NCBI GenBank assembly: GCA_017303975.1
Contig: JAFLBG010000005.1
Location: forward strand, 39,353-103,352
Reading direction: 5' to 3'
Source of the DNA: Bacteroidota bacterium
Lineage (GTDB): Bacteria; Bacteroidota; Bacteroidia; JAFLBG01
DNA length: 64,000 nucleotides
A program made the translations under genes and the position numbers. The notes under the pieces were generated by a model. It ran no database searches. It was not told where the DNA came from and saw only the letters and a program-made list of their open reading frames with translations. Of this stretch, positions 13,491-50,037 are shown one piece after another (positions within the stretch are counted from its first letter, which is position 1; each line of letters opens with the position of its first letter).

Positions 13491-13621
13491 GTTATTTCTC
13501 GACTTCTTTATATTTGAAATTGTAGTTGCTTGATTAAAAAAAACAATATATATTAAATTTTCAATTTTAAAAATACATCTATACAATTAACTACTTTAGT
13601 TAGATTACTAATTTTTTAGCA

Positions 13622-15352: not shown

Positions 15353-15449
15353 TACCAACCATTTCACTGAACTTTATTTCTATAAACCTGTTTATATTTT
15401 GCTAAAATTCCTGTACGTTTGTTAATCAATAACTTAAACTAAACTATTT

Positions 15450-23550: not shown

Positions 23551-24951
23551 TTACTCTATCAGCAATTTTTTAGCGCCCAATACACCTCCATTACTATCCA
23601 ATCCAACCAAGGTATAAAGCCCTTTATTAGCAATAGTTACAGACAATATAACGTTTGGTTTCACTAAATAACTTCCAATAGCTTCTCCTAATATATTTAA
23701 AACTACAATATTCAGTTCTGTTGAATAGTTTGTTTTTATTGAAACAACTCCACTACTTGGATTTGGGAAAACAGTTATATCCTTTTGAAAATAATCGGTT
23801 ACAGATAAATTAGCACCAACATTAATCGCAAAGTAAGAAGTATCTGCACAGGCACTATTGGAAGCAACTAGTGTTATAGTATATGAGCCAGGAGTAGTGT
23901 ATGTGTGATTTGTGCTTGCTCCTAATTGGTTTGATGTTGCATCTCCAAAATTCCATAAGAAATTTATACCAACAGTATTAGCTGTTGCAGAGTAATTCAA
24001 ATTTTGGGCTGCGTGTATAGAAGAAGGTATAGAGGCATTGGCATTCAAGATAAATAAGGATTTCAAATTTTTACTTGTTGAGCCATGTCTTGGGTTAATC
24101 GTACTCAATCCTGAACACCAAACACCGTCATTGTCAATAATAGTGGCACCGGCAACGGATGCCCCCAGAGATTTTGTTCTAAACTCAACTCGCTGAATGC
24201 CATTTGGCAACTTGTTGGGAATAATTGTAGCCCAGTAATAATCAATCGTATCAACATCTCTGTAATACTGTATGTAAGAGGAAATATTTTTCTGCACAAT
24301 CCCATCCTTCTCAATTACTGCAATTGATATCGGCCGTCCCGAGCCAGCTGTATTGTCATATAACAAAGCAAAATCTTTTGTATTTAACAGTGTTCCAGTT
24401 ACGCTATCTATCAAAGAAGAACACTGCAATGTATCACTTGCTACATTTCCAAAATTTACTACTCGTACTAAATAGCTAGATGCCTTAATTCGTGTAGCAA
24501 CAGAATTGCCACCCATGCCATCATTTATATTTATTTGTGGGTACACAAATTTTCCGGGTGTAAAGCGATCATTCCCGGTTGGCTCTAAACCAAACCACCC
24601 TTTGTATACACCAGCAGAATCTGTTTTCAATGAATCGTAATTGCCCAAAGTTGCAACAGAAAGCGAAGTAGAACGCAAAAAAGAATTACCTAGTGCATTA
24701 ATTAAAATTGGATTACCGGCCCCATTACTAGAAGGAGAACTATTCAAAGTATCAATCGTTGTGTAATACCTGTATGTTGTATCCGGAATTAATCCGCTGA
24801 TTTCTGCCCAAAAATAAAATGGAACTCGCTCATTATTGGTAGTGCTTTTTCCTTGAATAAACTGCGGAACAATAGCACTACTAATTGTTTGAGAGGTTGC
24901 AACTGCTGCGATAACAATAAAAGCAACTAGTAATATTTTCTTCATATTCAT
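23551..24951 (-). CDS. secreted protein with PKD-like domain and type-A T9SS C-terminal sorting domain
   Basis: signal peptide; NFGDATSN...HTYTTPGSYTITLVASN PKD signature; C-terminal VFPNPSSGVVSI...GAKKLLIE CTD. Confidence 0.75.
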   Translation of the reverse strand: MNMKKILLVAFIVIAAVATSQTISSAIVPQFIQGKSTTNNERVPFYFWAEISGLIPDTTYRYYTTIDTLNSSPSSNGAGNPILINALGNSFLRSTSLSVATLGNYDSLKTDSAGVYKGWFGLEPTGNDRFTPGKFVYPQININDGMGGNSVATRIKASSYLVRVVNFGNVASDTLQCSSLIDSVTGTLLNTKDFALLYDNTAGSGRPISIAVIEKDGIVQKNISSYIQYYRDVDTIDYYWATIIPNKLPNGIQRVEFRTKSLGASVAGATIIDNDGVWCSGLSTINPRHGSTSKNLKSLFILNANASIPSSIHAAQNLNYSATANTVGINFLWNFGDATSNQLGASTNHTYTTPGSYTITLVASNSACADTSYFAINVGANLSVTDYFQKDITVFPNPSSGVVSIKTNYSTELNIVVLNILGEAIGSYLVKPNVILSVTIANKGLYTLVGLDSNGGVLGAKKLLIE

Positions 24952-25003
24952 GTTTTTTACCGTGTTGTATCTTATCTTTTGTAGGTAATTTAATTTGATA
25001 AAG

Positions 25004-26317
25004 TTATAAAACTTCCTTTAACTCTTCTAGCCGTATTCCCCGCGAACCTTTTAATAGAATTGTGCTATCTAAAATAGGATTCTCTTTAATCCAGTCGGCC
25101 AATGCTTTGGTGGTAGCAAATTTTTTATAAGTACTCGGAGCCGCTGTTTTTCCAAACTCATTGCCAACTAAAAAAACGGTTTGTAGTTTTTTTGATTGCA
25201 TAAATCTAACCATTTCTTCGTGTTCACTTTCACTAAAAGAACCCATTTCAAGCATATCGCCTACAATTACAATTTTGGATGGAGACTCAATCTCTACAAA
25301 GCTTTCAATTGCAGCAGACATACTTGATGGATTGGCATTATACGCATCCATGAATAACACATTTTTTGGTGTCTTAATTACTTGAGACCTATTGTTGCTG
25401 GGGACATATTCTTCTATGGCACTTTTTATCAACTCGTTGCTAACTTCAAAATAATGTCCAACAGCTACTGCTGCTAATATATTCGGCAAATTATATTTAC
25501 CAATCAAATTTGTTCTAATGCCAACTTGTGACGGGAGTGAATGCGCATATCTAAGAAACACATCAACGTGCAAAAATGGTTGATTCCCTGTAACATTGCC
25601 CCGTACAGAGGAATCTTGGGAAACTCCGTACGTAATTCGCTTCAACTGCTTACTTAGTGTATTTAGTACACTATCATCTTCATTCACAAAAGCAAATCCA
25701 TTTTTCGTTTTTAAATAATCGTACAATTCATTATTCGAAGCTATTACACCTTCTATGCTACCAAATCCTTCCAAATGATCTTTTCCGTTATTGGTAACAA
25801 TACCAAAATTGGGCTGAGCAATGGTGCATAGAAATGCGTTTTCTCCGGCATGATTAGCACCCAATTCTATTACAGCCAGCTGATGGTCGGCTTTAATTTC
25901 TAGGATACACAATGCAACCCCAATATGATTGTTCAAGTTTCCGGGAGTAGAATAGGTATTGTATTGTTTTTTTAAAACTGCACTCATTAACTCCTTTGTT
26001 GTCGTTTTGCCATTACTTCCGGCAATAGCAATAACAGGGATTTGCAACACACTTCTGTGGTAGCGAGCCAAATCTTGTAATGTCGTTAAAACATCGTTTA
26101 CTAAAATATATTTTTCATTTAAAACAACATCGGGCTCATCCACAATAGCAAATGCGGAACCTTGCTCTATTGCTTGTTTTGCAAACGTATTTGCATTAAA
26201 ATTTGGACCTTTTAGTGCAAAAAACAATCCTCCTTGTTTTATTTTTCTTGTATCAGTACAAATGATAGGGTGTTTTAAAAAAACACGTTCGTATAGTTCT
26301 TGTATGGTCATACTCAA
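25004..26317 (-). CDS. murF: UDP-N-acetylmuramoyl-tripeptide--D-alanyl-D-alanine ligase
   Basis: Mur ligase P-loop IAIAGSNGKTTTKE; 437 aa. Confidence 0.85.
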   Translation of the reverse strand: MSMTIQELYERVFLKHPIICTDTRKIKQGGLFFALKGPNFNANTFAKQAIEQGSAFAIVDEPDVVLNEKYILVNDVLTTLQDLARYHRSVLQIPVIAIAGSNGKTTTKELMSAVLKKQYNTYSTPGNLNNHIGVALCILEIKADHQLAVIELGANHAGENAFLCTIAQPNFGIVTNNGKDHLEGFGSIEGVIASNNELYDYLKTKNGFAFVNEDDSVLNTLSKQLKRITYGVSQDSSVRGNVTGNQPFLHVDVFLRYAHSLPSQVGIRTNLIGKYNLPNILAAVAVGHYFEVSNELIKSAIEEYVPSNNRSQVIKTPKNVLFMDAYNANPSSMSAAIESFVEIESPSKIVIVGDMLEMGSFSESEHEEMVRFMQSKKLQTVFLVGNEFGKTAAPSTYKKFATTKALADWIKENPILDSTILLKGSRGIRLEELKEVL

Positions 26318-26375
26318 ATTTACAATAAGTGTAGTAAAGTTTTAGAAATAAAAACAATAAAAGGGAAAACAAAAC

Positions 26376-27395
26376 CTAGTTAGAAAATGCACCTTTGTAA
26401 AGCAATGACACTTCTAAGCCTCCACGAAAGACCGTAGCAGCACGTAATTTAGAAACATTGACATCATAACTAAACCCTAGTAACAAAGACTTTTGCAACT
26501 CAAATGCAGCATTCACAATTATCGCATCTCTTAATCTGTAATGTATTCCCAACATAACTGCAGAAGAAGTTGTTCGGTCGGTATAAACCAAATCGGAGGC
26601 ATTGTCTTTTCCAATTATATACTTAACCATACTTCCTGCAATAATCTCGGAAAAAGGGCCTTGCCTTACAAGCAAGAGATTGGGCAATGCAAACAAATTC
26701 TTACCGGAGCCCATACGAATTTGAAAATTTAAATTTGCAATTATTTTAGCTGGTAATTTATTTCCTTCTTTGGTTCCGTAAAAACTAATATCCGGCTTAT
26801 TTAGATGGTATACAGCAAGACCTGCATTTGATTTAAAATCGGCAAACTTATTTATGTACGACCAAGCCGCACCAGCTCCAATATCCAAATAGTTCTTCTT
26901 TTGATTGCCAAACAATTCGCCCGATGACAGGGATGGATCGTAATAATTCCCGTTGTATTGGCTATCCCATTTTAAATTATCGTTATACGAAATACTTTTT
27001 TGCCCAAAAGCTCCTTCCGCACCAAAATAAAATGACGTATTGCTACTAACTCGCATTGTATAAGATGTTCCAAGTGCTACGCGATTCGTTTTTAATGCTG
27101 CACTTCCTGATTTGTCATTAAAAAAACTAATGCCAACTCCCACACGCTTTGCAGGCAAAGCTAATTCTGCCGATGCAAACATGGTTTTATAACTATCATC
27201 AACTACCTGCCATTGATTTTTATAATTGGTCGTAAACCTATAATCTCCTTTAAACACGCCAATATTAGCAGGGTTTAGCATGGTAGGATTAAAATAGAAT
27301 TGAGAAAAGTGTATGTCTTGCGCCTTTGTAAATGGATTGAGTAGTAAGCATATGATAATTAGTAATAGATGTCGCTTAAAAAAAAGCATACGCAT
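26376..27395 (-). CDS. PorP/SprF-family T9SS outer-membrane protein, cognate partner of the upstream type-B cargo
   Basis: AQDIHFSQFYFNPTMLNPANIG N-terminus after a signal peptide; the start was moved to the internal ATG at 27395 because the upstream 23 codons are non-hydrophobic; immediately downstream of the CHU_C-type cargo gene. Confidence 0.8.
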   Translation of the reverse strand: MRMLFFKRHLLLIIICLLLNPFTKAQDIHFSQFYFNPTMLNPANIGVFKGDYRFTTNYKNQWQVVDDSYKTMFASAELALPAKRVGVGISFFNDKSGSAALKTNRVALGTSYTMRVSSNTSFYFGAEGAFGQKSISYNDNLKWDSQYNGNYYDPSLSSGELFGNQKKNYLDIGAGAAWSYINKFADFKSNAGLAVYHLNKPDISFYGTKEGNKLPAKIIANLNFQIRMGSGKNLFALPNLLLVRQGPFSEIIAGSMVKYIIGKDNASDLVYTDRTTSSAVMLGIHYRLRDAIIVNAAFELQKSLLLGFSYDVNVSKLRAATVFRGGLEVSLLYKGAFSN

Positions 27396-27500
27396 ATCAC
27401 CCCTCACAAAAAGGATCAATAGGATACTATTCTTTTTACTATTTATAGAATTCCTAATACGCATTTATTTTACCATCTACTAACTACTTATTACCAATTA

Positions 27501-30500
27501 CTATCTTACCAATGTTAGATTGCCTTTCTCTGAAATTTCAGTTTCATCGAACAACTCCGCCTCTACAAGCCAAATATAAACTCCCGCGGGAACGTCTTTG
27601 CCTCTAAATGTACCGTCCCATCCTATACCGGAATCTTTTGTTTCAAATACTTTTTCGCCCCAACGATCGTACACAACAAACTTTAACTCTCTAATTCCCT
27701 TGCCTCGCACATAAAACACATCATTCAATCCATCTCCGTTCGGAGAAAATATATCAGGAATAAAAATAGAGGTAGGCTCCAATATGCAAATATCAACAGA
27801 AGATTCATCAGTACAGCCACCTTCATTGTATATTAATAGTGTAGCAGAGTAATTGCCTGGATCTTGAAGTGTAATTTGAGGATTAACCCCTTTAACAAAT
27901 GGAATTGTATCTCCATTACTAAAAATCCAAAAACCTGTTTGTGCATTCAAACTCAAATCAAGCATTGTTAAACTCCTTTGCTCGTATGGAATACAGGCGT
28001 ATTTAGGATTCACAGAAAAAAGTGATTTAATTTTAGTGTAGCTCGGAATCTTAATCACGGTATCAATAAAACATCCTGAATTTTTATCTGTTATTTTAAC
28101 TGTATATATATTTCCTGCTAATCCTGTAATAGAAGCGGTAGTTTTTGCAGGATTTGTTGACCATGAGTAAGCATAATTACTTCCGGCTCCAACGACAGTA
28201 ACTGCAGCTGTTCCAGACAATCCATAACACAAGGTATCTGTGGTAGTTGCAGTTTGAGAAAATGTAGGATAAACAAGAATTGTTATAGAATCTGTTTTTT
28301 CGTCCGAACAATTATCGTTGGTATTTACTATATACGTGGTAGTGATGCTCGGAAATACTTGATGTGTATTAATTGCAGGCAGTCCGTTATTCCATGCATA
28401 TGTAATATTTGCAAACGGAACTCCGGTGGTAGCAGCTAAGGAAATAATTGCATTATCTCCAATGCACAACGAATCGTTTGTAGCAGTTAATGTTGTTGTG
28501 ATTGCGGGGTACACGGTAACTTGTATGGTATCAGAAGTCGAGCAACTTGCACCTCCGGAACCTACATAATAATAGACAATCTGATGCGCTCCATTCCCAG
28601 CAATGGAAGGGTTAAAGGTATTTCCTACAATACCTGGACCGCTAAGCACACCGCCTGTTGGGTTTACAGATAAATTAAATGCACTATCATTAAAACAATA
28701 AGTAGTGTTTAATCCATTTATTTGTGCTGCTGTAAATTGATACACAGTAACATCTACAGATGCTCCGCATCCGTTAACACGCGTAGTGTAATAAACTGTA
28801 GAAGTAACCGACCCAGTAATTGCCGGATTAAACAAGCCGGAGTCGGCATTCACAATTCCATATCCATACCATTTAATTCCATTTCCTATAACTTGTAGGT
28901 CGATGGGAAATGTTGGCATGATGGAACATACAGAAGTATCTGCAAAAGACAATGTGCCGGGATAAACAACAATGCGCAAGGTATCTGTACAATTATTTGC
29001 AGTATAGAGTAATGTGTGTAATCCTGGTCCGGCTAAGGAGGGTTTAAAATAAAACTTTCTGTCATACACTGGCGGATAGCTTATTAACGCAGGCCCTGTC
29101 CATAGCCCTCCACCGGGAGTTCTGTAGGCATTAAGAAAAACAGAATCCATATCAGTGGAACAATAAAAAAGCGTATCAACTGACACCTCAGTACTACGTG
29201 TGTAAATCCGAAGCGTATCAATACATCCATTTGGAGCGGTATATTGAAACCACTCTTCTGAATTATTGGGTGGAACAGAGGGATCATAAAACCCCCAATT
29301 GGTTTGCAAGCCGGAAGGGCCAACAAAAGTTTGAAAAACTGTTGCCCATGTGCCTCCGGGAGGGTCAGGAATTCTCAACGTATCGGCCAACGTACCTTGA
29401 CACACTACAAAATTTCCTCCAACATCAGACGGTTTTAAATACAGTTTTATCGTATCTGTACATCCATTAATTGAGTAAACAAAATTTTGATTTCCGGGAT
29501 TCATGAATTGCGGCTGAATTATACCATTTATCAAATCGGAGAAAGCCCAATTGTTGTTAAGCCACGTACCACCCGGTGGGCTGAAATTTAATTGATAATG
29601 TCTTATTGATTCACAAATAGTATCTCTGCTGCTATTTATGTTTAGCGAACCAACTGTTACAACTTTACTTTCGGTACATCCATTTGGGGATGTGTAAACA
29701 ACCGTATATGAGCCAATCGTAGAGGGGTTAAACAATCCGCCACCTGTTACAAATGGCGTGCCTGACCATGCGCCACCCGGAGGAGTACCTCCGGAAAGCA
29801 TAAATGAGGGAGCTCCCGGACATGAAGCTTGAGCAAGCCCAGCATCAACTGCATTAACCGTAATTCGCAAACTATCTTTACACTGTCCACCAATAGTATA
29901 ATAAATAGTATGTAAGCCACCTCCGGCAGAATCGGGATTAAATGTGCCGGGCTTGGTAATTAGCATTCCAGCGCCACTCCAACTGCCGCCCGGTGGTGTT
30001 GCTAAAACCGTAAATGCTTTAACCGATTGACAAATAGTAGTGTCTTGTCCAGGGAAGGTAATGGTAGGCGAAAGAATAGAAACTAAAATTGTTTTTGTTT
30101 GAATTGGTCCACCAACAGCAGGCTGCACAGAAACAGTATATATAGTTGATGCGGTAGGACAAATAGATTGTACAGCGCCATTCGGCAAACCATGACTCCA
30201 ATAATAATTGTATGCTAAACAACCCGTTGGCGCTACTGATGCGGTTACCTGTGTACAGGTATTTGCGCAAACAGAAAAGCTAGGAAGAGCTGTCGCTGTA
30301 ATTACGAACGGGCAGTCGTTTACAAGTGAGGTATCTCTCAAAATAAATGTCCACAAACTATCGCAGTTATCAAGCATACTGTAATTTACTCTTACCACAT
30401 ACTCACAGTTAATTGTAAGTGGCGCACTTAGTGTAACTCGTACACTTTGAGTACTATCATTTACACAAATTAAACCGGCTACAGCTGTGGTAAGAGGGTT

Positions 30501-31061
30501 TAATGTGTTATTAATACTAAACACTGAAAAGTCATTTATTGTTAACGAATCGCAATGAATATTTCTACTGAATAACAAATCGACTGTGTTGGTGCTACAA
30601 GCAGGTTGCGGAGATACAGAGAATGTAGGAGGCACAGGTGGAGCAACAACGGACGTCCACTGTGCTGCAAAACCAAACTTGTTTAATGCAAAATCGGACA
30701 CAAAGACCAACACCATACATCCCGAGGTTGCGGTTACTGCACCTGGAGAAACCTGTCCTGTATATCCGCCTATCAATGAAGTTCCATCATATACGTACAA
30801 TGAATCTGACCCGGCCTCTAAATCAAAAAACGAAAAATTAAGAGTTACACTAGAATTGGAGCAAATACGAAAAATACTATGTTCATTTGCACTATAAATC
30901 CCAGAGGGGCCACCAGAATCATAAACCTTACCCTTACATTCAGTTATGGTAGTATCTCCATTCAGAATCATATTGAATGATGGCACTTGTGCTTTTAACA
31001 CAATTGCAGAAAATGCAAGTAGCGCAACTAAAAATATTTTTCTTACAACAGTAGCTTGCAT
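27501..31061 (-). CDS. large secreted adhesin-like protein with gliding-motility-associated C-terminal domain (type-B T9SS CTD)
   Basis: signal peptide; Cys-rich Ig-like repeats; C-terminus PDIFSPNGDGLNDVFYVRG...YDRWGEKVFE...GWDG...AGVYIW matches the CHU_C / type-B CTD consensus. Confidence 0.8.
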   Translation of the reverse strand: MQATVVRKIFLVALLAFSAIVLKAQVPSFNMILNGDTTITECKGKVYDSGGPSGIYSANEHSIFRICSNSSVTLNFSFFDLEAGSDSLYVYDGTSLIGGYTGQVSPGAVTATSGCMVLVFVSDFALNKFGFAAQWTSVVAPPVPPTFSVSPQPACSTNTVDLLFSRNIHCDSLTINDFSVFSINNTLNPLTTAVAGLICVNDSTQSVRVTLSAPLTINCEYVVRVNYSMLDNCDSLWTFILRDTSLVNDCPFVITATALPSFSVCANTCTQVTASVAPTGCLAYNYYWSHGLPNGAVQSICPTASTIYTVSVQPAVGGPIQTKTILVSILSPTITFPGQDTTICQSVKAFTVLATPPGGSWSGAGMLITKPGTFNPDSAGGGLHTIYYTIGGQCKDSLRITVNAVDAGLAQASCPGAPSFMLSGGTPPGGAWSGTPFVTGGGLFNPSTIGSYTVVYTSPNGCTESKVVTVGSLNINSSRDTICESIRHYQLNFSPPGGTWLNNNWAFSDLINGIIQPQFMNPGNQNFVYSINGCTDTIKLYLKPSDVGGNFVVCQGTLADTLRIPDPPGGTWATVFQTFVGPSGLQTNWGFYDPSVPPNNSEEWFQYTAPNGCIDTLRIYTRSTEVSVDTLFYCSTDMDSVFLNAYRTPGGGLWTGPALISYPPVYDRKFYFKPSLAGPGLHTLLYTANNCTDTLRIVVYPGTLSFADTSVCSIMPTFPIDLQVIGNGIKWYGYGIVNADSGLFNPAITGSVTSTVYYTTRVNGCGASVDVTVYQFTAAQINGLNTTYCFNDSAFNLSVNPTGGVLSGPGIVGNTFNPSIAGNGAHQIVYYYVGSGGASCSTSDTIQVTVYPAITTTLTATNDSLCIGDNAIISLAATTGVPFANITYAWNNGLPAINTHQVFPSITTTYIVNTNDNCSDEKTDSITILVYPTFSQTATTTDTLCYGLSGTAAVTVVGAGSNYAYSWSTNPAKTTASITGLAGNIYTVKITDKNSGCFIDTVIKIPSYTKIKSLFSVNPKYACIPYEQRSLTMLDLSLNAQTGFWIFSNGDTIPFVKGVNPQITLQDPGNYSATLLIYNEGGCTDESSVDICILEPTSIFIPDIFSPNGDGLNDVFYVRGKGIRELKFVVYDRWGEKVFETKDSGIGWDGTFRGKDVPAGVYIWLVEAELFDETEISEKGNLTLVR

Positions 31062-31075
31062 TAAACATGGATTAT

Positions 31076-31519
31076 TTATAGGCTATCATGAATAGCGATA
31101 GAGGAAGTAACAATTTCATTACTCCAATTCCCGGCTCTATCTTTTATTTTAATGGATAGGGTAGCATTCTCTTGCGTTGCATTGCCTAAGCGAAACATAT
31201 TTTTCAACTTGATTCGAATTTTGCCTTGTGTTTGCAACTCTTCATTATTAGGTGTTATTGGTTTTAGGTGATATCCATCTGCATTTAGTAAGCGACTGTC
31301 TTTTACATGAACCGATTTTTCATCGGCCGACTCATCTCCTAAATCGCCATTGTTATCTTTATAGGATAGTGTAACAATTACACTATCCCTAAACTCCATA
31401 ACACTTGTAGGCTCTACGCTTTCCAATTCAATAGTAGGTTCCAAAGCCAACTCCTTATCTTTCTTTTTGCAAGAAATAATACACAAAAACAATACTGCTA
31501 TAAAAAAAATCTTTTGCAT
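31076..31519 (-). CDS. lipoprotein, unknown function (147 aa)
   Basis: signal peptide with lipobox (IISCKKK); 14-nt gap to the downstream adhesin gene. Confidence 0.5.
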   Translation of the reverse strand: MQKIFFIAVLFLCIISCKKKDKELALEPTIELESVEPTSVMEFRDSVIVTLSYKDNNGDLGDESADEKSVHVKDSRLLNADGYHLKPITPNNEELQTQGKIRIKLKNMFRLGNATQENATLSIKIKDRAGNWSNEIVTSSIAIHDSL

Positions 31520-31521
31520 AT

Positions 31522-32526
31522 CTATTGAATTTTTAATGTAAAGTACTCGAATACATTTTTAGCGACACCTATATTAGGTGTTTCAGTAACGACAGGTTGG
31601 TCGTTATCATCCAAATACAATCTAACATACAACACCGTTCCCGAGGAATAAGTAGCTGTATTGATTGTAATCTTCCTGGTGTAGCTAACGCTAGTATTTA
31701 CATCCAATAGCTTAGGTCCCGATATAGGGCTTGTAACAACAGTAAGATTCTGTGCGGCTGTAGTATCTAATTTAAAAACAGAATTAGCAAATTTAATGGT
31801 ATTGTTTGAAATGGCCGCAGCACTAGTGCTATCGTCTTCAACCGCAAACCACAAATCAACCGAGCCTTGCGGAACCAAAATGGAACCCCTCTTATTTGGG
31901 TTATCAAATCTAGGATATGCGCTACTTGTATTACCTACAGGGAATGCCATAAAGCCTACCGTTTGTGGTTGTTTGTTGCCAAGAGTTGGGGAATTATTAA
32001 ACATGTCTTTTGCGCCTGCGTTTATCCAATCTTTTATGTTTTGTATGTAGGTGTCTGCATTGTTTGTCCAGTCAGTACTATTAGGATTGTTAGACAGTAA
32101 AAATGGCATCCTTCCTTGCGTACCTAGCAGAGCTTGTGTTAAACGAACATACAACATAGAAGAATCTGAGTTACCCGGCAACACACGGTATCTGTAAACT
32201 TGTGGGAGTGGTTGCATAATAGTGCTATCAAAACCATGATTGAATGTTGGCGCGTACAACAACGTGTTATAAGAGCTATAAATGCTTCGGAAATCGGGCA
32301 TAAAGGTTCCATCATGGCATTGAACATTTCCGCAAGTTGGTCGAAATATTTTTTCGTACAGATAGGCAAAATTATTTCCGGCCGGATTATTTAAACCTGG
32401 AGATGGCCCCGGATCTTGCAATGCGGGATCGTCATACGGGTTGTCAAACTCCGGATCTTTTTTGCACGAATTAAATGCAATAGCCAAACACAAGACTAAA
32501 ACAATAAGAACTAAATATTTATTCAT
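31522..32526 (-). CDS. lipoprotein, unknown function (334 aa)
   Basis: lipobox (AFNSCKK); contains CGNVQCH (CxxxxCH, not a canonical heme site); 2-nt gap to the neighbouring genes. Confidence 0.5.
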   Translation of the reverse strand: MNKYLVLIVLVLCLAIAFNSCKKDPEFDNPYDDPALQDPGPSPGLNNPAGNNFAYLYEKIFRPTCGNVQCHDGTFMPDFRSIYSSYNTLLYAPTFNHGFDSTIMQPLPQVYRYRVLPGNSDSSMLYVRLTQALLGTQGRMPFLLSNNPNSTDWTNNADTYIQNIKDWINAGAKDMFNNSPTLGNKQPQTVGFMAFPVGNTSSAYPRFDNPNKRGSILVPQGSVDLWFAVEDDSTSAAAISNNTIKFANSVFKLDTTAAQNLTVVTSPISGPKLLDVNTSVSYTRKITINTATYSSGTVLYVRLYLDDNDQPVVTETPNIGVAKNVFEYFTLKIQ

Positions 32527-32527
32527 G

Positions 32528-34060
32528 CTATGTTAGTTTTTGAGTGCTTAATAATGATACCGGTGTATTGTATAAAAAACTATTTTGCTGATGCTCTTGT
32601 TGCAAATCTGTTAAAAAGCCCATTGCATGCGCAATGGTAGGCACAATATCGGCAGTTTGATTATTATTGGAAGTGCTATAATCAACCATGTGTCCTAAAG
32701 AAGGACCTTGTGTCCAAGCGGTACTATTTTGTGGACCTAAAATCATAGCAAACACATCTTGTGTGTTTAAATCAGAATGGTCGTAGCCCAGCAAATTATT
32801 AATATCCTTAATTGCGTTTGGTTGCAAATTTCTTCCGCATTCAGGTACAATTATCATGATGGTATTGTCTTGAAAGCCTGGTGTACTTTGTATATATTTC
32901 CACAAATGCGCTACACTATGGTCTGCCACATGCAAATTTTGCAAATACGAAGGGTAATTTTGGTGCGCACCATCCACCGCATGCATATTTACTACCGTAA
33001 GTTTCGGTTTAAATTTATCCATCACTTCAATAGCGTATCCAACTGCGGTTGTATCAACAGATTGATAACTACCTCCAATTATATTTCCTTGCGGATCTCT
33101 AACAGTTGCAGAACCATTGTGTATAAGAGGGAATCTAATATTATTATATGAAGCACCAAACATATTTTGCATAAACTGTTTTATATCGTGCTTCTCTTGC
33201 TCCGTGTTTCCAATATCTGTATACGTAACTCCAACTTGCTCGAAAGTATTGTCTAAAAAGTTTTTAAGCCCATACAAATTGGCATATTCATCCGGATGAT
33301 AAATCTTAGCATCTTTTAAATATTTTTCTCCTAAAGGAGTTGTCAACGATTTTTTATTTCCAAAAATAACATCAGGCACTAAAAAATTAGCACCGTACTT
33401 TGCACCCCAATTAGGATGCTGGCTGTAAGACAAGAGTGGAATAGAGTTGCCTATTCCGTATCCAACAAACCAGGTGTCGGTAGCCTTTAAACCTCTGTAC
33501 TTACGAGCATATTCAAATATGGTAGGATACAGCGGCCGCTGCTTCAATCCTTGAGAAAGTAAGGTATTTCCTTGCAACAAAACATTTAGGCCAGTGTAAT
33601 GTCCGGGAGAAGAGCTTTTGATTTTTTTATAAAATATGCCTTGTGTTTGCAAGGTATTTCCTTGCTGAAAAATGGGGTCAATATGCGAATCTCCGGAACC
33701 GGATGGACCATAAAATATTTTACCGGCCGCATTATAGTCACTATTGTTTGTAGAAACAGTTTTATTGTAAACAGGAGATTGCCCTTCCAACAAGTTATAC
33801 ATCACATTTCCTTTGATATCTAATTTTGGCAAATCCCCGGAAGGTCCTGTATAACTAGAATACTGGCTTCCCTTTAAATACAACTGCTGAATAGAATCTT
33901 GGTGTCTTATGCCACCCGCCATCATTACTAAAACAACATGATCTACTAGAGCTGTTCCACCTGTGCTTGCAAACAACCTACCCGATGGAAGTATGTAAGG
34001 AGCAACAAAGGCACCGGCTGCAGCCAATCCTGTTTTTTTTATAAATTCTTTTCTGTTCAT
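32528..34060 (-). CDS. DUF1501-like secreted protein (alkaline-phosphatase/sulfatase superfamily) with a Tat-like leader
   Basis: MNRKEFIKKTGLAAAGAFVAP Tat-like leader (RK rather than RR); VLVMMAGGIRHQDS and PECGRN...GYDHSD regions resemble the DUF1501 conserved blocks as I remember them. Confidence 0.5.
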   Translation of the reverse strand: MNRKEFIKKTGLAAAGAFVAPYILPSGRLFASTGGTALVDHVVLVMMAGGIRHQDSIQQLYLKGSQYSSYTGPSGDLPKLDIKGNVMYNLLEGQSPVYNKTVSTNNSDYNAAGKIFYGPSGSGDSHIDPIFQQGNTLQTQGIFYKKIKSSSPGHYTGLNVLLQGNTLLSQGLKQRPLYPTIFEYARKYRGLKATDTWFVGYGIGNSIPLLSYSQHPNWGAKYGANFLVPDVIFGNKKSLTTPLGEKYLKDAKIYHPDEYANLYGLKNFLDNTFEQVGVTYTDIGNTEQEKHDIKQFMQNMFGASYNNIRFPLIHNGSATVRDPQGNIIGGSYQSVDTTAVGYAIEVMDKFKPKLTVVNMHAVDGAHQNYPSYLQNLHVADHSVAHLWKYIQSTPGFQDNTIMIIVPECGRNLQPNAIKDINNLLGYDHSDLNTQDVFAMILGPQNSTAWTQGPSLGHMVDYSTSNNNQTADIVPTIAHAMGFLTDLQQEHQQNSFLYNTPVSLLSTQKLT

Positions 34061-34071
34061 GTTTGCTCTTT

Positions 34072-34596
34072 TTAGTAGTACAAATACTCGTTAGATAAAA
34101 CGAATGAGAAATAAACTATCTCAGGCGAAATTTTTGTAGAGTCTAAGTTGCCTCCGGAATCTTTCCCCCATGTTTCGATATAGTTTTTTACATATGTTTT
34201 TTCTGCTTCGGTAGGATATCGTATATAAAAACGCTTGTAGGTGTCGTTCACAAATTTATCTACATCGGCCATCATCTCTACATGGGTTGGCTTTAATACT
34301 TTTTTGCTTACATCGTTCAACATGTTATTAATTACCAATTCTCGCACCAACGATTTATCCCCCACAGCTTCTATTGTCTGACTAATTTCAAAAATTTGAT
34401 TGGCACTAAGCGCCTTTTGAAAAAGGTTGGCATGCAGTATAGCCACAAACTGCTCGTTGGTTTTTAGTTTTGTTTTACCAGATGTGCTAGGGTTTAATGT
34501 AATGGGATTTACATCATACGTAGGCTCTAATTCTTTTTTGCAACCTACCACAAAAAGAAACAGACAAAGGGTTGATGTAATTAATATTTTTTTCAT
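34072..34596 (-). CDS. lipoprotein, unknown function (174 aa)
   Basis: lipobox (FVVGCKK); 11-nt gap to the downstream gene. Confidence 0.5.
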   Translation of the reverse strand: MKKILITSTLCLFLFVVGCKKELEPTYDVNPITLNPSTSGKTKLKTNEQFVAILHANLFQKALSANQIFEISQTIEAVGDKSLVRELVINNMLNDVSKKVLKPTHVEMMADVDKFVNDTYKRFYIRYPTEAEKTYVKNYIETWGKDSGGNLDSTKISPEIVYFSFVLSNEYLYY

Positions 34597-34641
34597 TTTA
34601 AAGTTTGTTAATTGAAACTATACACTTTCAATTTAAATACG

Positions 34642-34711
34642 CCACAAAGTCTTCGACTGGCTCAGGCTGACTTTCGCTCGGTCATATTGAGCCTGTCGAA
34701 ATAGTGCGTTG
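34642..34711 (-). repeat. copy A of a ~70-nt palindromic repeat element with 13-bp imperfect terminal inverted repeats TTCGACAGGCTCA...TGAGCCTGTCGAA; intragenic-operon location
   Basis: the reverse complement aligns at about 85% identity with 49967..50037, including the flanking CA(A/G)CGCACT and CGAAGACTT blocks. Confidence 0.7.
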
Positions 34712-34767
34712 AGTTATTAAAAAAATCATTTATTTATCTATTTATTTTTTTTATACAATCATTCATT

Positions 34768-35691
34768 TTAAAATCCTGCATATTCATTCGTAATCAACAC
34801 TTTTCGTTGCAATTTTTGTAAATCATGGTCGGCATATAATTCTTGTATATAGGTGTATATCTCGCTGGAAGATGGGCTTCTGGATAAAAAGCTCTTGTAT
34901 GTCCACCAAATTAATCCTTCGTAAAATTCGTGCGAGGTTGTTGCTATTTTTATAAAATCTCCCTTGTTCTGCCCAGACATTCCAAAAAGTGTTGCAGGCT
35001 TGTTGTATTCCACCATATCATAGGCTTTGTTGTATTCATTAATATCTGGAAAGCGGTAATACAAATCATTAAATACAGCATTAATAAAATTGAAAGAATT
35101 CATGTTGATCTGATCGTACACTTTATTGTACACCATTGCATAAAAAACATCATTTATATCAATCGAATCGTTTCGGTATTTGGATTGAGAATCGTGTATA
35201 GCCCATAGTTTTCGAACTTCAATCCTATTTATTTCTGCACCAAGAGAATCTCCATTAGTCGAATCTACAACAACATTATATTGATAATGCCCATAAATCC
35301 AATTCCCTATTATGTCTTGATCGCTTATAGACTCTAACGTTCTAGCTTTTGCCATTTCATAAAGCTTGTTATAGTAAGCATATTTGTAAGAGGAATCTCC
35401 GGGCAAATACGTTTCATCTGTTTGCAACCTAAGTACAATTGCCTCTCGAGCTGCCATGCTTACATCAGAGGCACGTAAAATTTCAACATCTCTTTGCAGT
35501 TCGGTTTGCAGTGCCTCCCTTCCTATTAAATCTATGTATAGTTTATTCACATAGTTTTCGAGTTTTATGGTGGAAAGCCCTTTGTATAGAGGTGCGTTAT
35601 TGTCTAAAATAAGTTCGGCATCTTTTTTACAAGAATGGATTAGGGTTAAAAAAGATAAAAGAAGAATTGAATAGTTAATTCTATTTCTCAT
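34768..35691 (-). CDS. lipoprotein, unknown function (307 aa)
   Basis: lipobox (LIHSCKK); first gene of the co-directional block. Confidence 0.5.
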   Translation of the reverse strand: MRNRINYSILLLSFLTLIHSCKKDAELILDNNAPLYKGLSTIKLENYVNKLYIDLIGREALQTELQRDVEILRASDVSMAAREAIVLRLQTDETYLPGDSSYKYAYYNKLYEMAKARTLESISDQDIIGNWIYGHYQYNVVVDSTNGDSLGAEINRIEVRKLWAIHDSQSKYRNDSIDINDVFYAMVYNKVYDQINMNSFNFINAVFNDLYYRFPDINEYNKAYDMVEYNKPATLFGMSGQNKGDFIKIATTSHEFYEGLIWWTYKSFLSRSPSSSEIYTYIQELYADHDLQKLQRKVLITNEYAGF

Positions 35692-35795
35692 TGTAAATAA
35701 GCAGGTTTTGACTAAATATAGTCTAAAAAATACTAAGAATCAATTTAAAAAAATGTTATTCTTAGCATTTGAAAGCTAAAAAGGGGGGAACAAAA

Positions 35796-36440
35796 CTACC
35801 TTACAACTAGTTTTTTATTGTAAAGCTTGTTATTACTACTTGCGGTAATTGTGTATAAACCGGGAGCTAAATTTTGGTTAGTTTCTATGTTTGTTATTAT
35901 TTGTTCCTCTTCTAAAATAAATGCTTTGGAGTAATGCTCTTTGCCCAACACATCGTGCACTACTATTAACACCTCTTCTCCGGACTGTCCGGTAAATGCT
36001 ACATTGATATTACCATTGGTTGCCGGATTAGGGTAAACCATCAGTAGAGAACTTTCCAACTTTAAACGTTGAAACTCTACCGCTACCAATTCGCTATAAT
36101 CATATGCTCCATCAAAATCGGTTTGTTTTAGGCGGTAGTAAGATGTGCCTTGAAAAGGCTTTGTATCAATTGTTGCATAATTTAGTATTTGAGAGCTATT
36201 GCCAGCTCCATCAACAGTTGCAACAAACTCATAATTAACTCCGTCTTGTGTTTTTTCAATTGTAAAGTAATCGTTATTCGTTTCGCTGGCAGTTGTCCAT
36301 TTTAATTGGGCGTATTCGTTATTTATATTTTCGGCTGTAAAACTTAATAGTTCTATCGGTAGGCCCACCATGCAGGTAGTAGCCAATTCAGAGGTATTGT
36401 TGTCTGATACTGTGCGCTGTGGCGGTAACACTTTCTCCAT
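35796..36440 (-). CDS. C-terminal segment (FN3-like domain plus type-A T9SS CTD) of a giant parallel beta-helix cargo; probably part of one gene spanning 35796..42065
   Basis: ends ...LMVYPNPATNGNINVAF...NKLYNKKLVVR (type-A CTD); the ORF opens only 3 codons upstream of its ATG and overlaps the 3' end of ORF 36388..39273 in another frame. Confidence 0.6.
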   Translation of the reverse strand: MEKVLPPQRTVSDNNTSELATTCMVGLPIELLSFTAENINNEYAQLKWTTASETNNDYFTIEKTQDGVNYEFVATVDGAGNSSQILNYATIDTKPFQGTSYYRLKQTDFDGAYDYSELVAVEFQRLKLESSLLMVYPNPATNGNINVAFTGQSGEEVLIVVHDVLGKEHYSKAFILEEEQIITNIETNQNLAPGLYTITASSNNKLYNKKLVVR

Positions 36441-39423
36441 TATTAATAGTTACACCACTTAAGCTCCACGCCCCACTACCATTAGCTAATACTGACCCAA
36501 GGTATGTCATTGCATCTTGGCAATTGCCTGTATTGTTTTTAAATACTTCTACCGTATCGTTGGCTGTGGCTGTACCACTGACACTTGTTCCATTAAAGGC
36601 TGTTACGGATGGTTTTGCTTTGCTTGCATTGGCACTAGATGCTAGGGTTACACCACTGGCATTAGAGTAAATTAAATTTCTCGAAATTAAATTTCCTGTA
36701 CATGATGCCCCGGTTAAATAAACTCCAGCAGTACCATTGTGTGCAATTACATTACCATACGGATTTTGCCCGGTTGCCCCACTATTACCACCAATAGCAT
36801 TACCAATATTCCCATTGCTGATATATATTCCATAAGCCTGAACGGTTCCTGTAGGGGCACTTCCAGTTGAAGTACATCCAATATAATTTCCTTGTATTTT
36901 GGCACCAGTGGTGGTGGTTGAAAATAAGCGTATGCCATTTTGGGTATTTCCAGAAATTATATTTTTCTCGGCTGCACTCACCCCTCCAATCTGTAGGCCT
37001 AAAGTATTTGAAACTACCCTAATCCCAATATTTTGGTAGTAGTTAGAGGTGCCGGAAGTACCATCTGCAGCCAAACCTATTATATTACCCTTAATAACTA
37101 CATTATTATTATTGTTGTTAAAAAATATGATTCCGGACGATAATGCTCCATAGTTTGCAGAAATTACATTTCCATCACCAGCAGAGGTGCCTCCAATTTG
37201 GGTGCCATTTGCGCCACTTAACAGATGAATTCCTGCATCTTGCGAAGAAGAAGCAATGCCGGAAGCCCCGTCAGTTCCCACTCCAATGTAATTTCCTTTT
37301 ATAATGGTACCGGTCATATTGGTATTTATATAGATGCCTGCTGTTTCATTCCCGCCAATAATATTTCTTTTACCCGAACCATTGCCTCCAATAGTTTGGT
37401 TATTGCTATTAACATAAATTCCGTTTAGTTGGGTATTCGAAGAAACATAACTCATACCATTTGCTTGTGTACCTATATGATTTCCAAAAACATTATCTAC
37501 TCCACTCGATTCTAAAATAATACCACTATTTATATTTCCGCTTATAACATTTCCTTCGCCAGCTGTTGTACCACCAATGGTATTTCCGTTAGAAGTGCCT
37601 GATAAATATACCCCTATGTCGTTCGAAGCTTTTGTGCTTCCATCACTACCTAAACCTATATAGTTCCCCTTAATATTGTTTCCACTAGAACTTCCGGATA
37701 TGCTTATTCCCCAGGCGTTATATCCAAATGTTAAAACATATTCGTGCCCTGAAATTATATTTCTACCGGAAGAAGTTCCGTTTCCAATGAGATTTCCATA
37801 CGAATTACTTATGTCTATCCCAACACCCTGACCACTACTATTTGCAGTCGAAACTTCTGAAACACCATCCGGATTTAACCCAATAATATTACCTAGTATT
37901 GTGTGGGATGTAACAGAGCTTAGTAAAATTCCTGTTCCATTTGAGTCATTTAATTGATCACCATTGTCAGAAATAGTATTTCCTTCGCCACTGGTGGTTC
38001 CCCCTATTGTGTTGGAATGTGCAGAACTATGGCACGATATTCCAGTGCGTTGTCCAATGGTATAAGATATGCCCGATGCGTCTTCATCTGAACCTATTCC
38101 AATTTTATTGCCTTTTATGCTATTGCCTGAAGTGCTTGCTCCTGTTAGCAAAATACCCGCTGTATTATTTAATGAAATAATATTACGAGCTCCGGTTGTG
38201 CCACTCCCTATTTGATTATTGGTGCTCCCATTAGCCAAGTATATACCATAGTCCTGATCGCTATTTACCTCCCCAAGTCCACCTCTATTTAAACCAATTA
38301 CATTACCTAAAATAGTATGAGAAGATACTCCGTTTAAATAAATACCTGAATTTGTATTTCCTGTAACTGTATTTTCCTCGGCTGAAGCCGTACCTCCAAT
38401 GGTGTTGCTATTGGATGAAGCTCCTCCCGAAATATAAATGCCATAATCTTGTGATGATGTAGCTATAGCAGATGTTCCATTACTTGCTAATCCTATATAA
38501 TTTCCTTTAATACTAGCGCCTGTTGTATAGTTAGAAATATAAATTCCCGCCTCTGTATTTGCAGATATAATATTGCGAGCTCCGGATACATTTCCCCCTA
38601 TTACGTTGTTTGACATATATTCTCCATCTCCAAAATCGTAGAAATAGATACCATATTTTTGGGTAGAAGATGTAACAACAGTAGAGCCATCTGCTTGCGG
38701 GCCTATGGTATTTCCAATTATGGTATTACTACTTACCGATTCGGGATTATAATCTAACGCACTTCCTAAATAAATGCCATACCCTCCTGCAGCACCATCG
38801 TTATTGCCTGATATAATATTTCCTTCTCCGGCTGCAGTTCCGCCAATGGTATTATACATACAGGCATCATATAAATACGCGCCATAATTTTGGGTGCTGC
38901 TTGTCACAAAAGAAGTGCCATTGCTTTGCAATCCTATGTAGTTTCCTTTTACTACGTTTCCGGTTGCTCCCGGATAAGTAATAGTGACACCCGAATATTC
39001 ATTCCCGGAAATAATATTTCGTTGAGCGTTTGCACCACCAACAGTATTATTAGTACCAGATATATCCACACCCGTTTGTTGAGCATGGGAGGTTACATAA
39101 GTACTACCATCTTTTTGTAGCCCTATTACATTTCCAATAACAGAATTGTTTGTTCCCCCAACTCCAATACCGGAAGTGTTCCCCGAAATTACATTTGCCT
39201 CTCCTGCAGCGGTGCCTCCTATTGTGTTGTACGAGCCAGCTAGACCAACCCCTCCTTGAGCAGATGATGTCATAAAGCTAGTGCCATTGCTTTGCAGTCC
39301 AATAAAATTTCCTTTGACAATATTTCCGGTAGTACCGGAGCCACTGAAATTTACCCCTGCACTTTTATTTCCTGAAATAACATTTCCACCTGCGGTTTGG
39401 GTATTACCAATAACATTGTTTAA
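36388..39423 (-). CDS. middle segment of the giant parallel beta-helix repeat protein (PbH1-type N.IGGT..GEGN.ISGN repeats)
   Basis: the reading frame stays open upstream of the annotated ATG (39273) through 39423 and keeps the same repeat motif (..NNVIGNTQTAGGNVISGN..GNFIGLQSNGTSF-MTSS..); the annotated 147-nt intergenic gap is therefore coding. Confidence 0.6.
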   Translation of the reverse strand, partial: LNNVIGNTQTAGGNVISGNKSAGVNFSGSGTTGNIVKGNFIGLQSNGTSFMTSSAQGGVGLAGSYNTIGGTAAGEANVISGNTSGIGVGGTNNSVIGNVIGLQKDGSTYVTSHAQQTGVDISGTNNTVGGANAQRNIISGNEYSGVTITYPGATGNVVKGNYIGLQSNGTSFVTSSTQNYGAYLYDACMYNTIGGTAAGEGNIISGNNDGAAGGYGIYLGSALDYNPESVSSNTIIGNTIGPQADGSTVVTSSTQKYGIYFYDFGDGEYMSNNVIGGNVSGARNIISANTEAGIYISNYTTGASIKGNYIGLASNGTSAIATSSQDYGIYISGGASSNSNTIGGTASAEENTVTGNTNSGIYLNGVSSHTILGNVIGLNRGGLGEVNSDQDYGIYLANGSTNNQIGSGTTGARNIISLNNTAGILLTGASTSGNSIKGNKIGIGSDEDASGISYTIGQRTGISCHSSAHSNTIGGTTSGEGNTISDNGDQLNDSNGTGILLSSVTSHTILGNIIGLNPDGVSEVSTANSSGQGVGIDISNSYGNLIGNGTSSGRNIISGHEYVLTFGYNAWGISISGSSSGNNIKGNYIGLGSDGSTKASNDIGVYLSGTSNGNTIGGTTAGEGNVISGNINSGIILESSGVDNVFGNHIGTQANGMSYVSSNTQLNGIYVNSNNQTIGGNGSGKRNIIGGNETAGIYINTNMTGTIIKGNYIGVGTDGASGIASSSQDAGIHLLSGANGTQIGGTSAGDGNVISANYGALSSGIIFFNNNNNNVVIKGNIIGLAADGTSGTSNYYQNIGIRVVSNTLGLQIGGVSAAEKNIISGNTQNGIRLFSTTTTGAKIQGNYIGCTSTGSAPTGTVQAYGIYISNGNIGNAIGGNSGATGQNPYGNVIAHNGTAGVYLTGASCTGNLISRNLIYSNASGVTLASSANASKAKPSVTAFNGTSVSGTATANDTVEVFKNNTGNCQDAMTYLGSVLANGSGAWSLSGVTINNGESVTATAHSIRQQYL

Positions 39424-49907: not shown

Positions 49908-49966
49908 CTACTATGGATTGAAAATCCGTAGGTTTAAATACATAAATGAAAATTATTTTAAAACTT

Positions 49967-50037
49967 CAGCGCACTTATTTCGACAAGCTCAACATGACCG
50001 CGCTAGTCAGTCTGAGCCTGTCGAAGACTTGGGGTGG
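49967..50037 (+). repeat. copy B of the ~70-nt palindromic repeat element, in inverted orientation relative to copy A
   Basis: CAGCGCACTTATTTCGACAAGCTCAACATGACCGCGCTAGTCAGTCTGAGCCTGTCGAAGACTTGG; internal 11 to 13-bp inverted arms; lies about 65 nt upstream of the lipoprotein gene at 50101. Confidence 0.7.

Follow-up and report, generated by a model that had tools for sequence, protein, structure and literature searches.

The 64,000-nucleotide window analysed here (contig JAFLBG010000005.1 of assembly GCA_017303975.1, a Bacteroidota bacterium) contains a block of seven minus-strand open reading frames (ORFs) at positions 26376-35691, which are referred to as g1 to g7 in minus-strand order. Six of these genes, g1 to g6, form a conserved core, to which g7 is a lineage-specific addition. 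g1, g2, g4 and g5 encode predicted lipoproteins, g3 encodes a predicted substrate for export by twin-arginine translocation (Tat) with an alkaline-phosphatase-like fold, g6 encodes a type IX secretion system (T9SS) cargo of type B and g7 a PorP/SprF-family outer-membrane protein. We tentatively favour the reading that the block is one conserved envelope module, in which a surface fibril and a periplasmic set of enzyme, cytochrome and lipoproteins would act in one pathway. The block most resembles, by analogy, the PSCyt/DUF1501 modules of other phyla (g3 and g4, possibly also g1 and g2), here joined to a T9SS fibril.

The evidence for a conserved unit comes from a comparison of gene neighbourhoods. 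A scan of one genome per species revealed that at least 585 Bacteroidota species-representative genomes encode a relative of g3. The loci studied were the best 80 by g3 homology and four from contig look-ups, 81 of them unique, and all 84 loci fetched in this way originate from uncultured genomes. The encoded proteins are 31-59% identical to those of the window, yet the gene order recurs in nearly all 81 unique loci; the arrangement is therefore far beyond chance, and the upstream genes and the cargo are one conserved unit. g1 and g2 are located upstream of g3 in 65 of the 67 testable unique loci, g4 and g5 downstream of it in all 68 that could be tested, and an ortholog of g6 is the next gene after g1-g5 in 50 of 53. 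The median junctions between consecutive genes from g1 to g6 are 6, 12, 2, -4 and 4 nucleotides (nt), so that g4 and g5 overlap by 4 nt and g5 and g6 are separated by 4 nt. The flanking genes vary between genomes. No further conserved gene was found upstream of g1, where the best cluster occurs in 20 of 56 loci and is clade-specific, or downstream of g6 in loci lacking g7, and neither a DUF1501 gene nor a g3 paralog was detected elsewhere in the window or in the 84 loci. A g7-type PorP/SprF gene directly follows g6 in only about 32 of 52 loci, with unrelated genes in its place in about 20, and for this reason the conserved core is confined to g1-g6. The first-pass annotation had counted g7 as part of the block, but g7 lies outside its invariant core; its suggestion of an accessory module linked to the adhesin, as opposed to an unrelated system, is favoured by the neighbourhood survey.

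Most of the apparent exceptions to this synteny are artefacts of detection or assembly. In locus L037, g1 was recovered by tblastn, and in locus L051 (12716-16193) two ORFs that overlap (12716-13645 and 13566-16193) stand in place of a single g6 ortholog, reflecting either a frameshifted pseudogene or an assembly error. Two exceptions are real. Locus L009 (2608-7815 and 8515-12812) lacks a g6 ortholog past g5 and has a reverse-strand gene for a protein of 998 amino acids (aa) at this place; a different, larger protein of 1736 aa with a type-B C-terminal sorting domain is encoded just upstream of g1, with a small reverse-strand gene in between. Locus L056 (6772-8130) contains a lone g3 homolog (48% identity) without g1, g2, g4 and g5. 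It is flanked by a pair of genes for type-A T9SS cargos and, on the other side, by a gene on the reverse strand; the contig measures 9 kb, and a misassembly is possible.

The type-B sorting domain of g6 scores 53.4 bits against TIGR04131 (cut-off 35) and 62.2 bits against PF13585, CHU_C (cut-off 27), and g7 scores 176.2 bits against TIGR03519 (cut-off 90.55) and 140.5 bits against PF11751 (cut-off 22.3). The earlier assignment of the last two genes as a type-B cargo and its PorP/SprF protein is thus confirmed above curated cut-offs, and it also holds that the five upstream genes lie outside the published cargo/shuttle paradigm. The N-terminal CUB domain of g6 matches PF00431 with 33.1 bits (cut-off 21.4, E 7.7e-8), and the middle part consists of about a dozen tandem cysteine-containing repeats of about 75 aa each, which give strong off-diagonal self-alignments. 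Thirty of the 34 cysteines are conserved in 51 orthologs, and conservation extends along the whole length. Since the protein is conserved over its full length, including these 30 cysteines, g6 is unlike a fast-evolving adhesin and has rather the appearance of a defined fibril that is rich in disulfides and headed by a CUB domain.

Both type-B cargos with a shuttle of the PorP/SprF type encoded downstream and orphan cargos served by a common shuttle have been described (PMC12618676). In loci without a linked PorP/SprF gene, the cargo retains its type-B sorting domain, which was above the cut-off in nine of ten cases tested, and these cargos are 'orphan' type-B substrates as the term is used in that account. 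SprF itself carries a C-terminal periplasmic Cys-x-Cys motif, which is disulfide-linked to the gliding track (PMC12635249). Such a tail is present in none of the 29 g7 orthologs listed, two of which have any cysteine within the last 45 residues, and it is also absent from the g7 of the window, which ends with ...LLYKGAFSN and has its sole cysteine at residue 39. Because g7 lacks the SprF-type motif, it can be argued that g6 is a static surface protein and not a propelled gliding adhesin.

g3 belongs to a large and unnamed group of proteins. Its homologs fall into more than 1255 clusters, all unnamed, 'hypothetical' or named just for their Tat signal; two of them are titled 'twin-arginine translocation signal domain-containing protein' by NCBI. 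The leader reads N-R-K-E-F in the window, with R-K as the twin residues, and K/D-R-R-x-F in the orthologs (29-homolog alignment A1), and Pfam TAT_signal matches seven of the 29 homologs. An AlphaFold model built with the 29 homologs reached a predicted template-modelling score (pTM) of 0.79, and a Foldseek search of the PDB with this model produced 187 matches at E<=1e-3. Among the 50 matches listed, whose template-modelling scores are low (0.21-0.46), there are sulfatases, alkaline phosphatases and phosphonate monoester hydrolases, together with a single periplasmic domain of YejM, and no other kinds of protein. The predicted fold is that of the alkaline-phosphatase superfamily, in a family distant from every solved member, and g3 sequence searches against the PDB, with the single sequence and with a profile, gave no match. 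Ortholog alignment, TAT_signal matches and Foldseek results together bear out the Tat-like leader and the alkaline-phosphatase/sulfatase fold proposed at first pass. As a side observation, the segment PYILPSGRLFA, which links the Tat hydrophobic core to the mature protein, is nearly invariant in the 29 homologs, far above the conservation normally seen in the c-region of signal peptides; it might be a chaperone-binding or retained-anchor segment. Furthermore, the g3 protein of the window (510 aa) is longer than its locus orthologs (441-464 aa) and the database homologs (up to 487 aa), and it owes this to lineage-specific insertions, modelled with low confidence, near residues 100-115, near residues 315-333 and at its C-terminal end.

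The nearest annotated relatives of g3 were found by tblastn against plasmid records. The protein WP_012167436.1 of Acaryochloris marina plasmid pREB3, annotated as 'sulfatase-like hydrolase/transferase', aligns with g3 over 347 columns including the Tat leader (hhalign, 99.5%, E 2.3e-23), and WP_338395232.1 of Fulvitalea axinellae, an 'alkaline phosphatase family protein', aligns with the C-terminal half (98.1%, E 7e-14). Because a cyanobacterium without T9SS carries a clear homolog, the g3 family is older and broader than the Bacteroidota cluster. The Acaryochloris homolog (L085, 5902-7080) has a Tat leader and the motifs GGGVRRRE, PDCGRD and YQHH and lies beside a 386-aa hypothetical gene; this neighbour was considered as a counterpart of g1 or g4 and rejected, as it is unrelated to both. 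Residues D363, H366, H377, D380, E407-C408 and D427-H428 are conserved in alignment A1. The 'DHG' metal motif of the Fulvitalea protein aligns with Glu407-Cys408, which is replaced by DC or EH in a few orthologs, a pattern expected of a metal ligand. This suggests that the metal site of g3 is retained in an altered, Glu-Cys form. D363-x2-H366 and D427-H428 are kept, there is no aspartate after strand 1, and no nucleophile could be assigned in g3 from the alignment or from hhalign.

The first-pass annotation likened the conserved blocks of g3 to DUF1501, an assignment that could not be upheld. Searches of Pfam and NCBIfam, including PF07394, yielded no match for the g3 of the window at E<=0.1, and PF07394 matches two of the 29 homologs, with a best E of 0.0044. 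When g3 was compared with six annotated DUF1501 proteins, hhalign recovered two short collinear end segments (64.6%, E 6e-5, and 38.8%, E 3e-4), in which 'GGPSQxE' and 'EFGR' of DUF1501 correspond to 'GGVRQQE' and 'ECGR' of g3, a weak similarity next to the 99.5% obtained with the cyanobacterial 'sulfatase-like' protein. The invariant serine of the DUF1501 motif GG-P-S-Q-x-E/D (four sequences aligned) is an invariant arginine, Arg52, in the g3 family. By these comparisons, g3 is best described as a family of its own inside the superfamily, which has the Tat leader and some motifs in common with DUF1501 and is not a member of it.

The neighbour of g3, g4, is predicted to be a lipoprotein with a planctomycete-type cytochrome-c-like domain that carries a CX4CH motif. 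The model (predicted local distance difference test score 86.7) comprises four helices in residues 53-169 and a beta-sandwich in residues 188-333. C21, C65, C70, H71, M140, P141, W167, I168 and G171 are invariant, and the motif C65-x4-C70-H71, which is CX4CH and not CXXCH, is found without exception in 41 sequences. In a local hhalign comparison, residues 48-182 matched eight PSCyt1 domains from annotated plasmid records over 89 columns (95.5%, E 1.5e-8). The haem cysteines and histidine are in line across a two-residue insertion, and the blocks 'vPG..S.L..R', 'MP' (Met140-Pro141) and 'WIxxGA' are in register; seven control comparisons with unrelated alignments stayed below 1.5%. A sequence search of the PDB returned an insignificant match of the Met-Pro/WIxxGA region to the dihaem cytochrome FoxE, and fold searches with the g4 model recovered just the beta-sandwich. 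Cytochrome c551 was tried as a relative of g4 and dropped, as hhalign against a single c551 sequence was not significant; tblastn searches of plasmids with g4 and g1 gave spurious matches only, one of them, in Pseudoalteromonas, outside any gene. The statement of the first-pass annotation that the lipoproteins have no recognisable domains is thus too strong, given the PSCyt1-type domain of g4 and the DUF4214-like character of g1 and g2, and its comment on the absence of the customary DUF1501 partner misleads, since a PSCyt1-domain partner, g4, adjoins g3.

g1, g2, g4 and g5 are predicted lipoproteins because each ortholog alignment shows an invariant cysteine where the hydrophobic stretch of the N-terminus ends; in g1 this is Cys21, invariant in 38 orthologs, and in g2 Cys19. 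Among these 38 g1 orthologs, sub-threshold Pfam matches were obtained to DUF4214 (27 orthologs), PBS_linker (24), PSCyt2/DUF1549 (13), PSD1 (five) and DUF1800 (two, E ~0.1), all of which cover one helical motif of about 50 residues. Sub-threshold DUF4214 matches (E<=1) also occur in 29 of 38 g2 orthologs. Against DUF4214 (PF13946, cut-off 23.2 bits), g1 and g2 of the window score 21.1 and 13 bits, and the scores of 12 proteins are all below the cut-off. The N-terminus of g1 aligns with g2 (hhalign, 90%, E 1.4e-6), and both are likely paralogous, DUF4214-like helical lipoproteins. Relatedness of g1 to PSCyt2/PSD1 gave just 9-17% in hhalign and is not claimed. g5 has a conserved NGDLG..DPD loop and scattered weak Pfam matches to beta-sandwich families, and its fold is probably a beta-sandwich; no relatives of g5 were detected outside the cluster, and a proposed link to the C-terminal domain of g4 or to the g6 repeats was discarded, as the likeness is limited to the signal and lipobox region. 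The surface-export signal of Bacteroidota lipoproteins is K-(D/E)2 or Q-A-(D/E)2 just past Cys+1, K-D alone being very weak (PMC5080379). This signal is not clearly present in g1 (CKKDAE), g2 (CKKELE), g4 (CKKDPE) or g5 (CKKKDKE), which have one acidic residue directly after the lysine, and the four lipoproteins are assumed to face the periplasm.

The coordinates of all features are given in Table 1. The seven ORFs appear in the ORF list at the positions first annotated, and the genes for the 307-, 174-, 510-, 334- and 147-aa proteins are called identically by an independent gene caller on an independent assembly. In the metagenome-assembled genome from which the window derives, the locus tags are J0M08_03215 for g4 and J0M08_03220 for g3; all five upstream proteins, g1-g5, are currently annotated as 'hypothetical'. 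The gaps computed from the coordinates are, from g1 to g6, 171, 11, 1, 2 and 14 nt, in agreement with the earlier values. The gap between g6 and g7 measures 36 nt from the first ATG and 105 nt, the distance annotated originally, if g7 starts at Met24 (27395). The true start is probably 27395 or 27389, and Met24 is more plausible because a normal signal peptide followed by AQDIHFSQF then remains.

Table 1. Genes, domains and motifs of the block, in window coordinates.
Feature	Position	Strand	Description
g1	34768..35691	-	307-aa lipoprotein (predicted), DUF4214-like helical repeats
Palindromic intergenic repeat element	34636..34715	none	in the g1-g2 gap
g2	34072..34596	-	174-aa lipoprotein (predicted), DUF4214-like paralog of g1 N-terminus
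g3	32528..34060	-	510-aa enzyme-like protein, Tat leader, predicted alkaline-phosphatase-superfamily fold, unnamed family
g3 Tat-type leader	33962..34060	-	residues 1-33
g4	31522..32526	-	334-aa lipoprotein (predicted), N-terminal PSCyt1-type cytochrome-c-like domain and C-terminal beta-sandwich
g4 PSCyt1-like domain	31981..32385	-	residues 48-182
g4 CX4CH motif	32314-32334	-	C65-x4-C70-H71
g5	31076..31519	-	147-aa lipoprotein (predicted), probably beta-sandwich
g6	27501..31061	-	1186-aa T9SS type-B cargo: signal peptide, CUB, tandem repeats, type-B sorting domain
g6 CUB domain	30660..30950	-	residues 38-134, N-terminal end
g6 type-B C-terminal sorting domain	27504..27764	-	residues 1100-1186
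g7	26376..27464	-	PorP/SprF-family outer-membrane protein, 362 aa from first ATG

The repeat element that had been noticed in the 171-nt gap is indeed present, as a palindrome that can form a hairpin of -27.2 kcal/mol (z = -3.2). A second, intergenic copy with about 80% identity is located at 49962-50040. The element has the core TTCGACAGGCTCA...TGAGCCTGTCGAA, and with both copies lying between genes it looks like a repetitive extragenic palindromic (REP) element or a miniature inverted-repeat transposable element (MITE). It is a local insertion, since g1 and g2 are a median of 6 nt apart in other genomes. No Rfam family matched in 26000-36500. A consensus scan found no terminator-like site in any intergenic gap, including the one between g1 and g2; its ten matches are no excess over shuffled sequence (mean 7.5), and the eight on the minus strand lie within coding sequence.

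On both sides, the block is flanked by genes on the same strand. A Mur-ligase-family gene, probably murF (25004-26317), starts 58 nt after g7 and is followed by a gene for a PKD-domain protein (23551-24951), whose match to the type-A sorting domain, 24.7 bits, falls just short of the Pfam cut-off of 27; the linkage of g7 to these two genes (23551-26317) is not kept in other genomes. Upstream of the block (35796-39273), a repeat-rich ORF of 961 aa (36388-39273) overlaps by 53 nt with an ORF of 214 aa (35796-36440) that bears a type-A T9SS sorting domain, and together they look like one type-A cargo gene split by a frameshift. The split is also found in the independent assembly, and is either real or derived from shared reads.

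How could a secreted fibril and a set of periplasmic proteins act in one pathway? In the module that we tentatively favour, g6 would be exported by Sec and cross the outer membrane via the T9SS, and its cognate PorP/SprF shuttle, g7, would receive it and keep it on the cell surface, following the established T9SS route; in loci without g7, a shared shuttle encoded elsewhere would take over g6. g3 would fold and acquire a metal or cofactor in the cytoplasm before its export by Tat, and would act in the periplasm together with the putative haem-binding lipoprotein g4 and with g1, g2 and g5, anchored on the inner face of the outer membrane. g1-g5 would then be a split and divergent counterpart of the PSCyt1-PSCyt2-PSD1 and DUF1501 pairs. 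In the pairs of Planctomycetes and Verrucomicrobia, the cytochrome proteins often have a carbohydrate- or protein-binding domain of their own (PMC3542564); in the block, a separate protein would take on this binding role, namely g6, with the CUB head that tips its fibril. As a best guess, the fibril would capture an external ligand, which the periplasmic enzyme-cytochrome unit would process by hydrolysing or transferring an ester or else by redox chemistry. This model is favoured because the CUB head is the sole obvious binding domain in the block.

Several points weigh against a single pathway. Pfam PSCyt1 (PF07635) matched none of 39 g4 orthologs at E<=1, and haem binding at the CX4CH motif of g4 is putative. 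g3 has no recognisable nucleophile and carries arginine in place of the invariant serine, and could thus be a binding protein or a pseudo-enzyme. The C-K-K-D/E N-termini of the lipoproteins are no clean match to K-(D/E)2, so that their placement is an assumption. The cluster contains neither a TonB-dependent transporter nor a porin, and no outer-membrane route was identified for a captured ligand if g1-g5 are periplasmic; g7, the obvious link across the membrane, is absent from about 38% of the loci. Apart from the linkage of the genes, the identity of their domains and the T9SS route, which is established, all parts of the model are inferred.

The main rival, which we consider rather unlikely, is that g1-g5 serve the maturation or anchoring of the cargo: g3 would add or remove a phospho- or sulfo-ester on g6 in the periplasm, prior to export by the T9SS, or the lipoproteins would tether g6 and g7 to the cell envelope in the way that PorE holds other static type-B cargos. 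SprC and SprD, which are encoded upstream of sprB-sprF, support the function of SprB, and in the block the cargo is the sole invariant partner of g1-g5, at a median distance of 4 nt from g5. Operons of Flavobacterium johnsoniae combine type-B cargos, shuttles and a PorE-like anchoring protein (PMC12618676), and the absence of Cys-x-Cys from g7 would fit a statically anchored cargo that needs another tether (PMC12635249). However, the Pfam and NCBIfam searches run showed no likeness of any of g1-g5 to PorE, SprC or SprD, it is not obvious what a cytochrome-type domain would contribute to anchoring, and a cyanobacterium, although devoid of T9SS, also encodes a member of the g3 family. Furthermore, the known alkaline-phosphatase-fold transferases that modify envelope components are membrane-embedded and not soluble proteins exported by Tat.

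A bolder version of the single pathway is a so far unrecognised trans-envelope machine, in which the CUB-tipped T9SS fibril would be functionally coupled, by way of either its PorP/SprF barrel or the lipoproteins, to a periplasmic haem lipoprotein and to a metalloenzyme that is exported by Tat and has an unusual, cysteine-containing site. Possible roles of such a machine are extracellular redox chemistry or the uptake and processing of a substrate captured at the surface; we regard its existence as unlikely.

It is improbable that a periplasmic PSCyt/phosphatase-fold set and an ordinary pair of T9SS adhesin genes have no relation to each other in the block beyond adjacency and co-transcription. 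In favour of this reading, PSCyt/DUF1501 modules elsewhere work without T9SS cargos, and g3 stands alone in L056, as the cluster stands without an orthologous cargo downstream in L009. Against this, 50 of the 53 loci that could be tested preserve the order g1-g6 despite 31-59% identity and unconserved flanks, the linkage of g6 with g1-g5 is more consistent than that with its own PorP/SprF protein, and L009 has a different type-B cargo immediately upstream of its cluster. Weakest of all is the version in which g3 is a DUF1501-family protein that lost its DUF1800 partner and was recruited to a T9SS adhesin: the Tat leader, the alkaline-phosphatase fold, the weak collinear end similarity ('ECGR'/'EFGR', 'GGVRQQE'/'GGPSQLE') and the two homologs with weak PF07394 matches speak for it, but PF07394 does not match the g3 of the window, g3 is far closer to superfamily members outside DUF1501 (hhalign E 2e-23 and 7e-14 vs 6e-5), and with the PSCyt-class partner g4 present, nothing has been 'lost'.

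In Planctomycetes and Verrucomicrobia, few gene pairs without an assigned function are as common as the PSCyt/DUF1501 modules, which have been unexplained since 2004-2012. The block is a stripped-down, single-copy relative that is locked to one defined protein of the cell surface in several hundred or more species of aquatic Bacteroidota, and it gives the PSCyt/DUF1501 question a concrete partner and phenotype, namely the display, binding or modification of one fibril. The uncultured origin of all 84 loci limits immediate experimental access. If the trans-envelope machine were real, the function of the PSCyt/DUF1501 class as a whole would become approachable for the first time. To T9SS research, the block adds a class of conserved accessory genes that is linked to a type-B cargo more tightly than the cargo's own shuttle, and clades with and without a linked shuttle provide a natural split. 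The domain assignments, i.e. the PSCyt1-like CX4CH domain, the alkaline-phosphatase fold with Glu-Cys and the DUF4214-like lipoproteins, could be transferred to thousands of database entries.

Among known systems, the cargo/shuttle pairs SprB/SprF and Fjoh_3952/Fjoh_3951 of F. johnsoniae and PG1035/PorP of Porphyromonas gingivalis share with the block a type-B cargo gene that is directly followed by a PorP/SprF gene, in line with the published arrangement (PMC12618676; PMC9143113). In contrast to these pairs, g7 lacks the SprF-type Cys-x-Cys and would thus be no track-coupled gliding carrier, about 38% of the orthologous clusters have no linked shuttle, and conserved upstream cytochrome, phosphatase-fold or DUF4214-like genes do not accompany the pairs as published. 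The Acaryochloris and Fulvitalea proteins are, judged by hhalign, true homologs of g3; however, their neighbours are unrelated to g1, g2, g4, g5 and g6, and the Fulvitalea protein has a canonical Asp-His where g3 has Glu-Cys. A further comparison is offered by DUF1800 and DUF1501 gene pairs, found for instance beside bacterial chitin synthase genes (PMC5122149). These pairs and the block have in common a helical partner gene immediately upstream of a Tat-exported phosphatase-fold gene, but DUF1800 matches just two of 38 g1 orthologs, and g3 is not a Pfam DUF1501 protein.

The closest resemblance is to the module described for Planctomycetes, Verrucomicrobia and Lentisphaerae, in which PSCyt1/PSCyt2(DUF1549)/PSD1(DUF1553) genes are adjacent to genes for Tat-exported DUF1501 proteins and whose function is unknown (Kamneva et al. 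2012, PMC3542564). Such pairs also occur on Bacteroidota plasmids, e.g. in Haliscomenobacter and Chondrinema. The canonical cluster of Haliscomenobacter plasmid pHALHY03 (L088, 1442-9255), which consists of a c-type cytochrome protein, DUF1501 and PSCyt/DUF1553, adjoins a SUMF1/EgtB/PvdO-family gene and a sigma/FecR/TonB-receptor set, and this may hint at substrate import for the classical modules. In the block as in the module, a PSCyt1-type gene adjoins a gene for a Tat-exported alkaline-phosphatase-superfamily protein, g3 and DUF1501 have weak collinear similarity, g1 has a short helical motif of the DUF4214/DUF1549 type, and a ligand-binding beta-sandwich domain is associated. On the other hand, none of the module's Pfam models was matched at threshold in the block, the haem motif of g4 is CX4CH instead of CXXCH, g3 has arginine instead of the invariant serine of DUF1501, and four small lipoproteins take the place of a long multidomain partner. 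The block is, moreover, joined syntenically to a T9SS cargo, a join that was not found for the module in the literature searched. Neither this cluster nor any link of a T9SS cargo to PSCyt-, DUF1501- or DUF4214-type proteins was described in the literature searches, and the same sources contained no obligate linkage of this kind, no CX4CH PSCyt1 domain on a small lipoprotein and no Glu-Cys site in a phosphatase fold. Taken together, the two halves of the block are each of known kinds, and its novelty lies in their obligate linkage and in the CX4CH and Glu-Cys variants.

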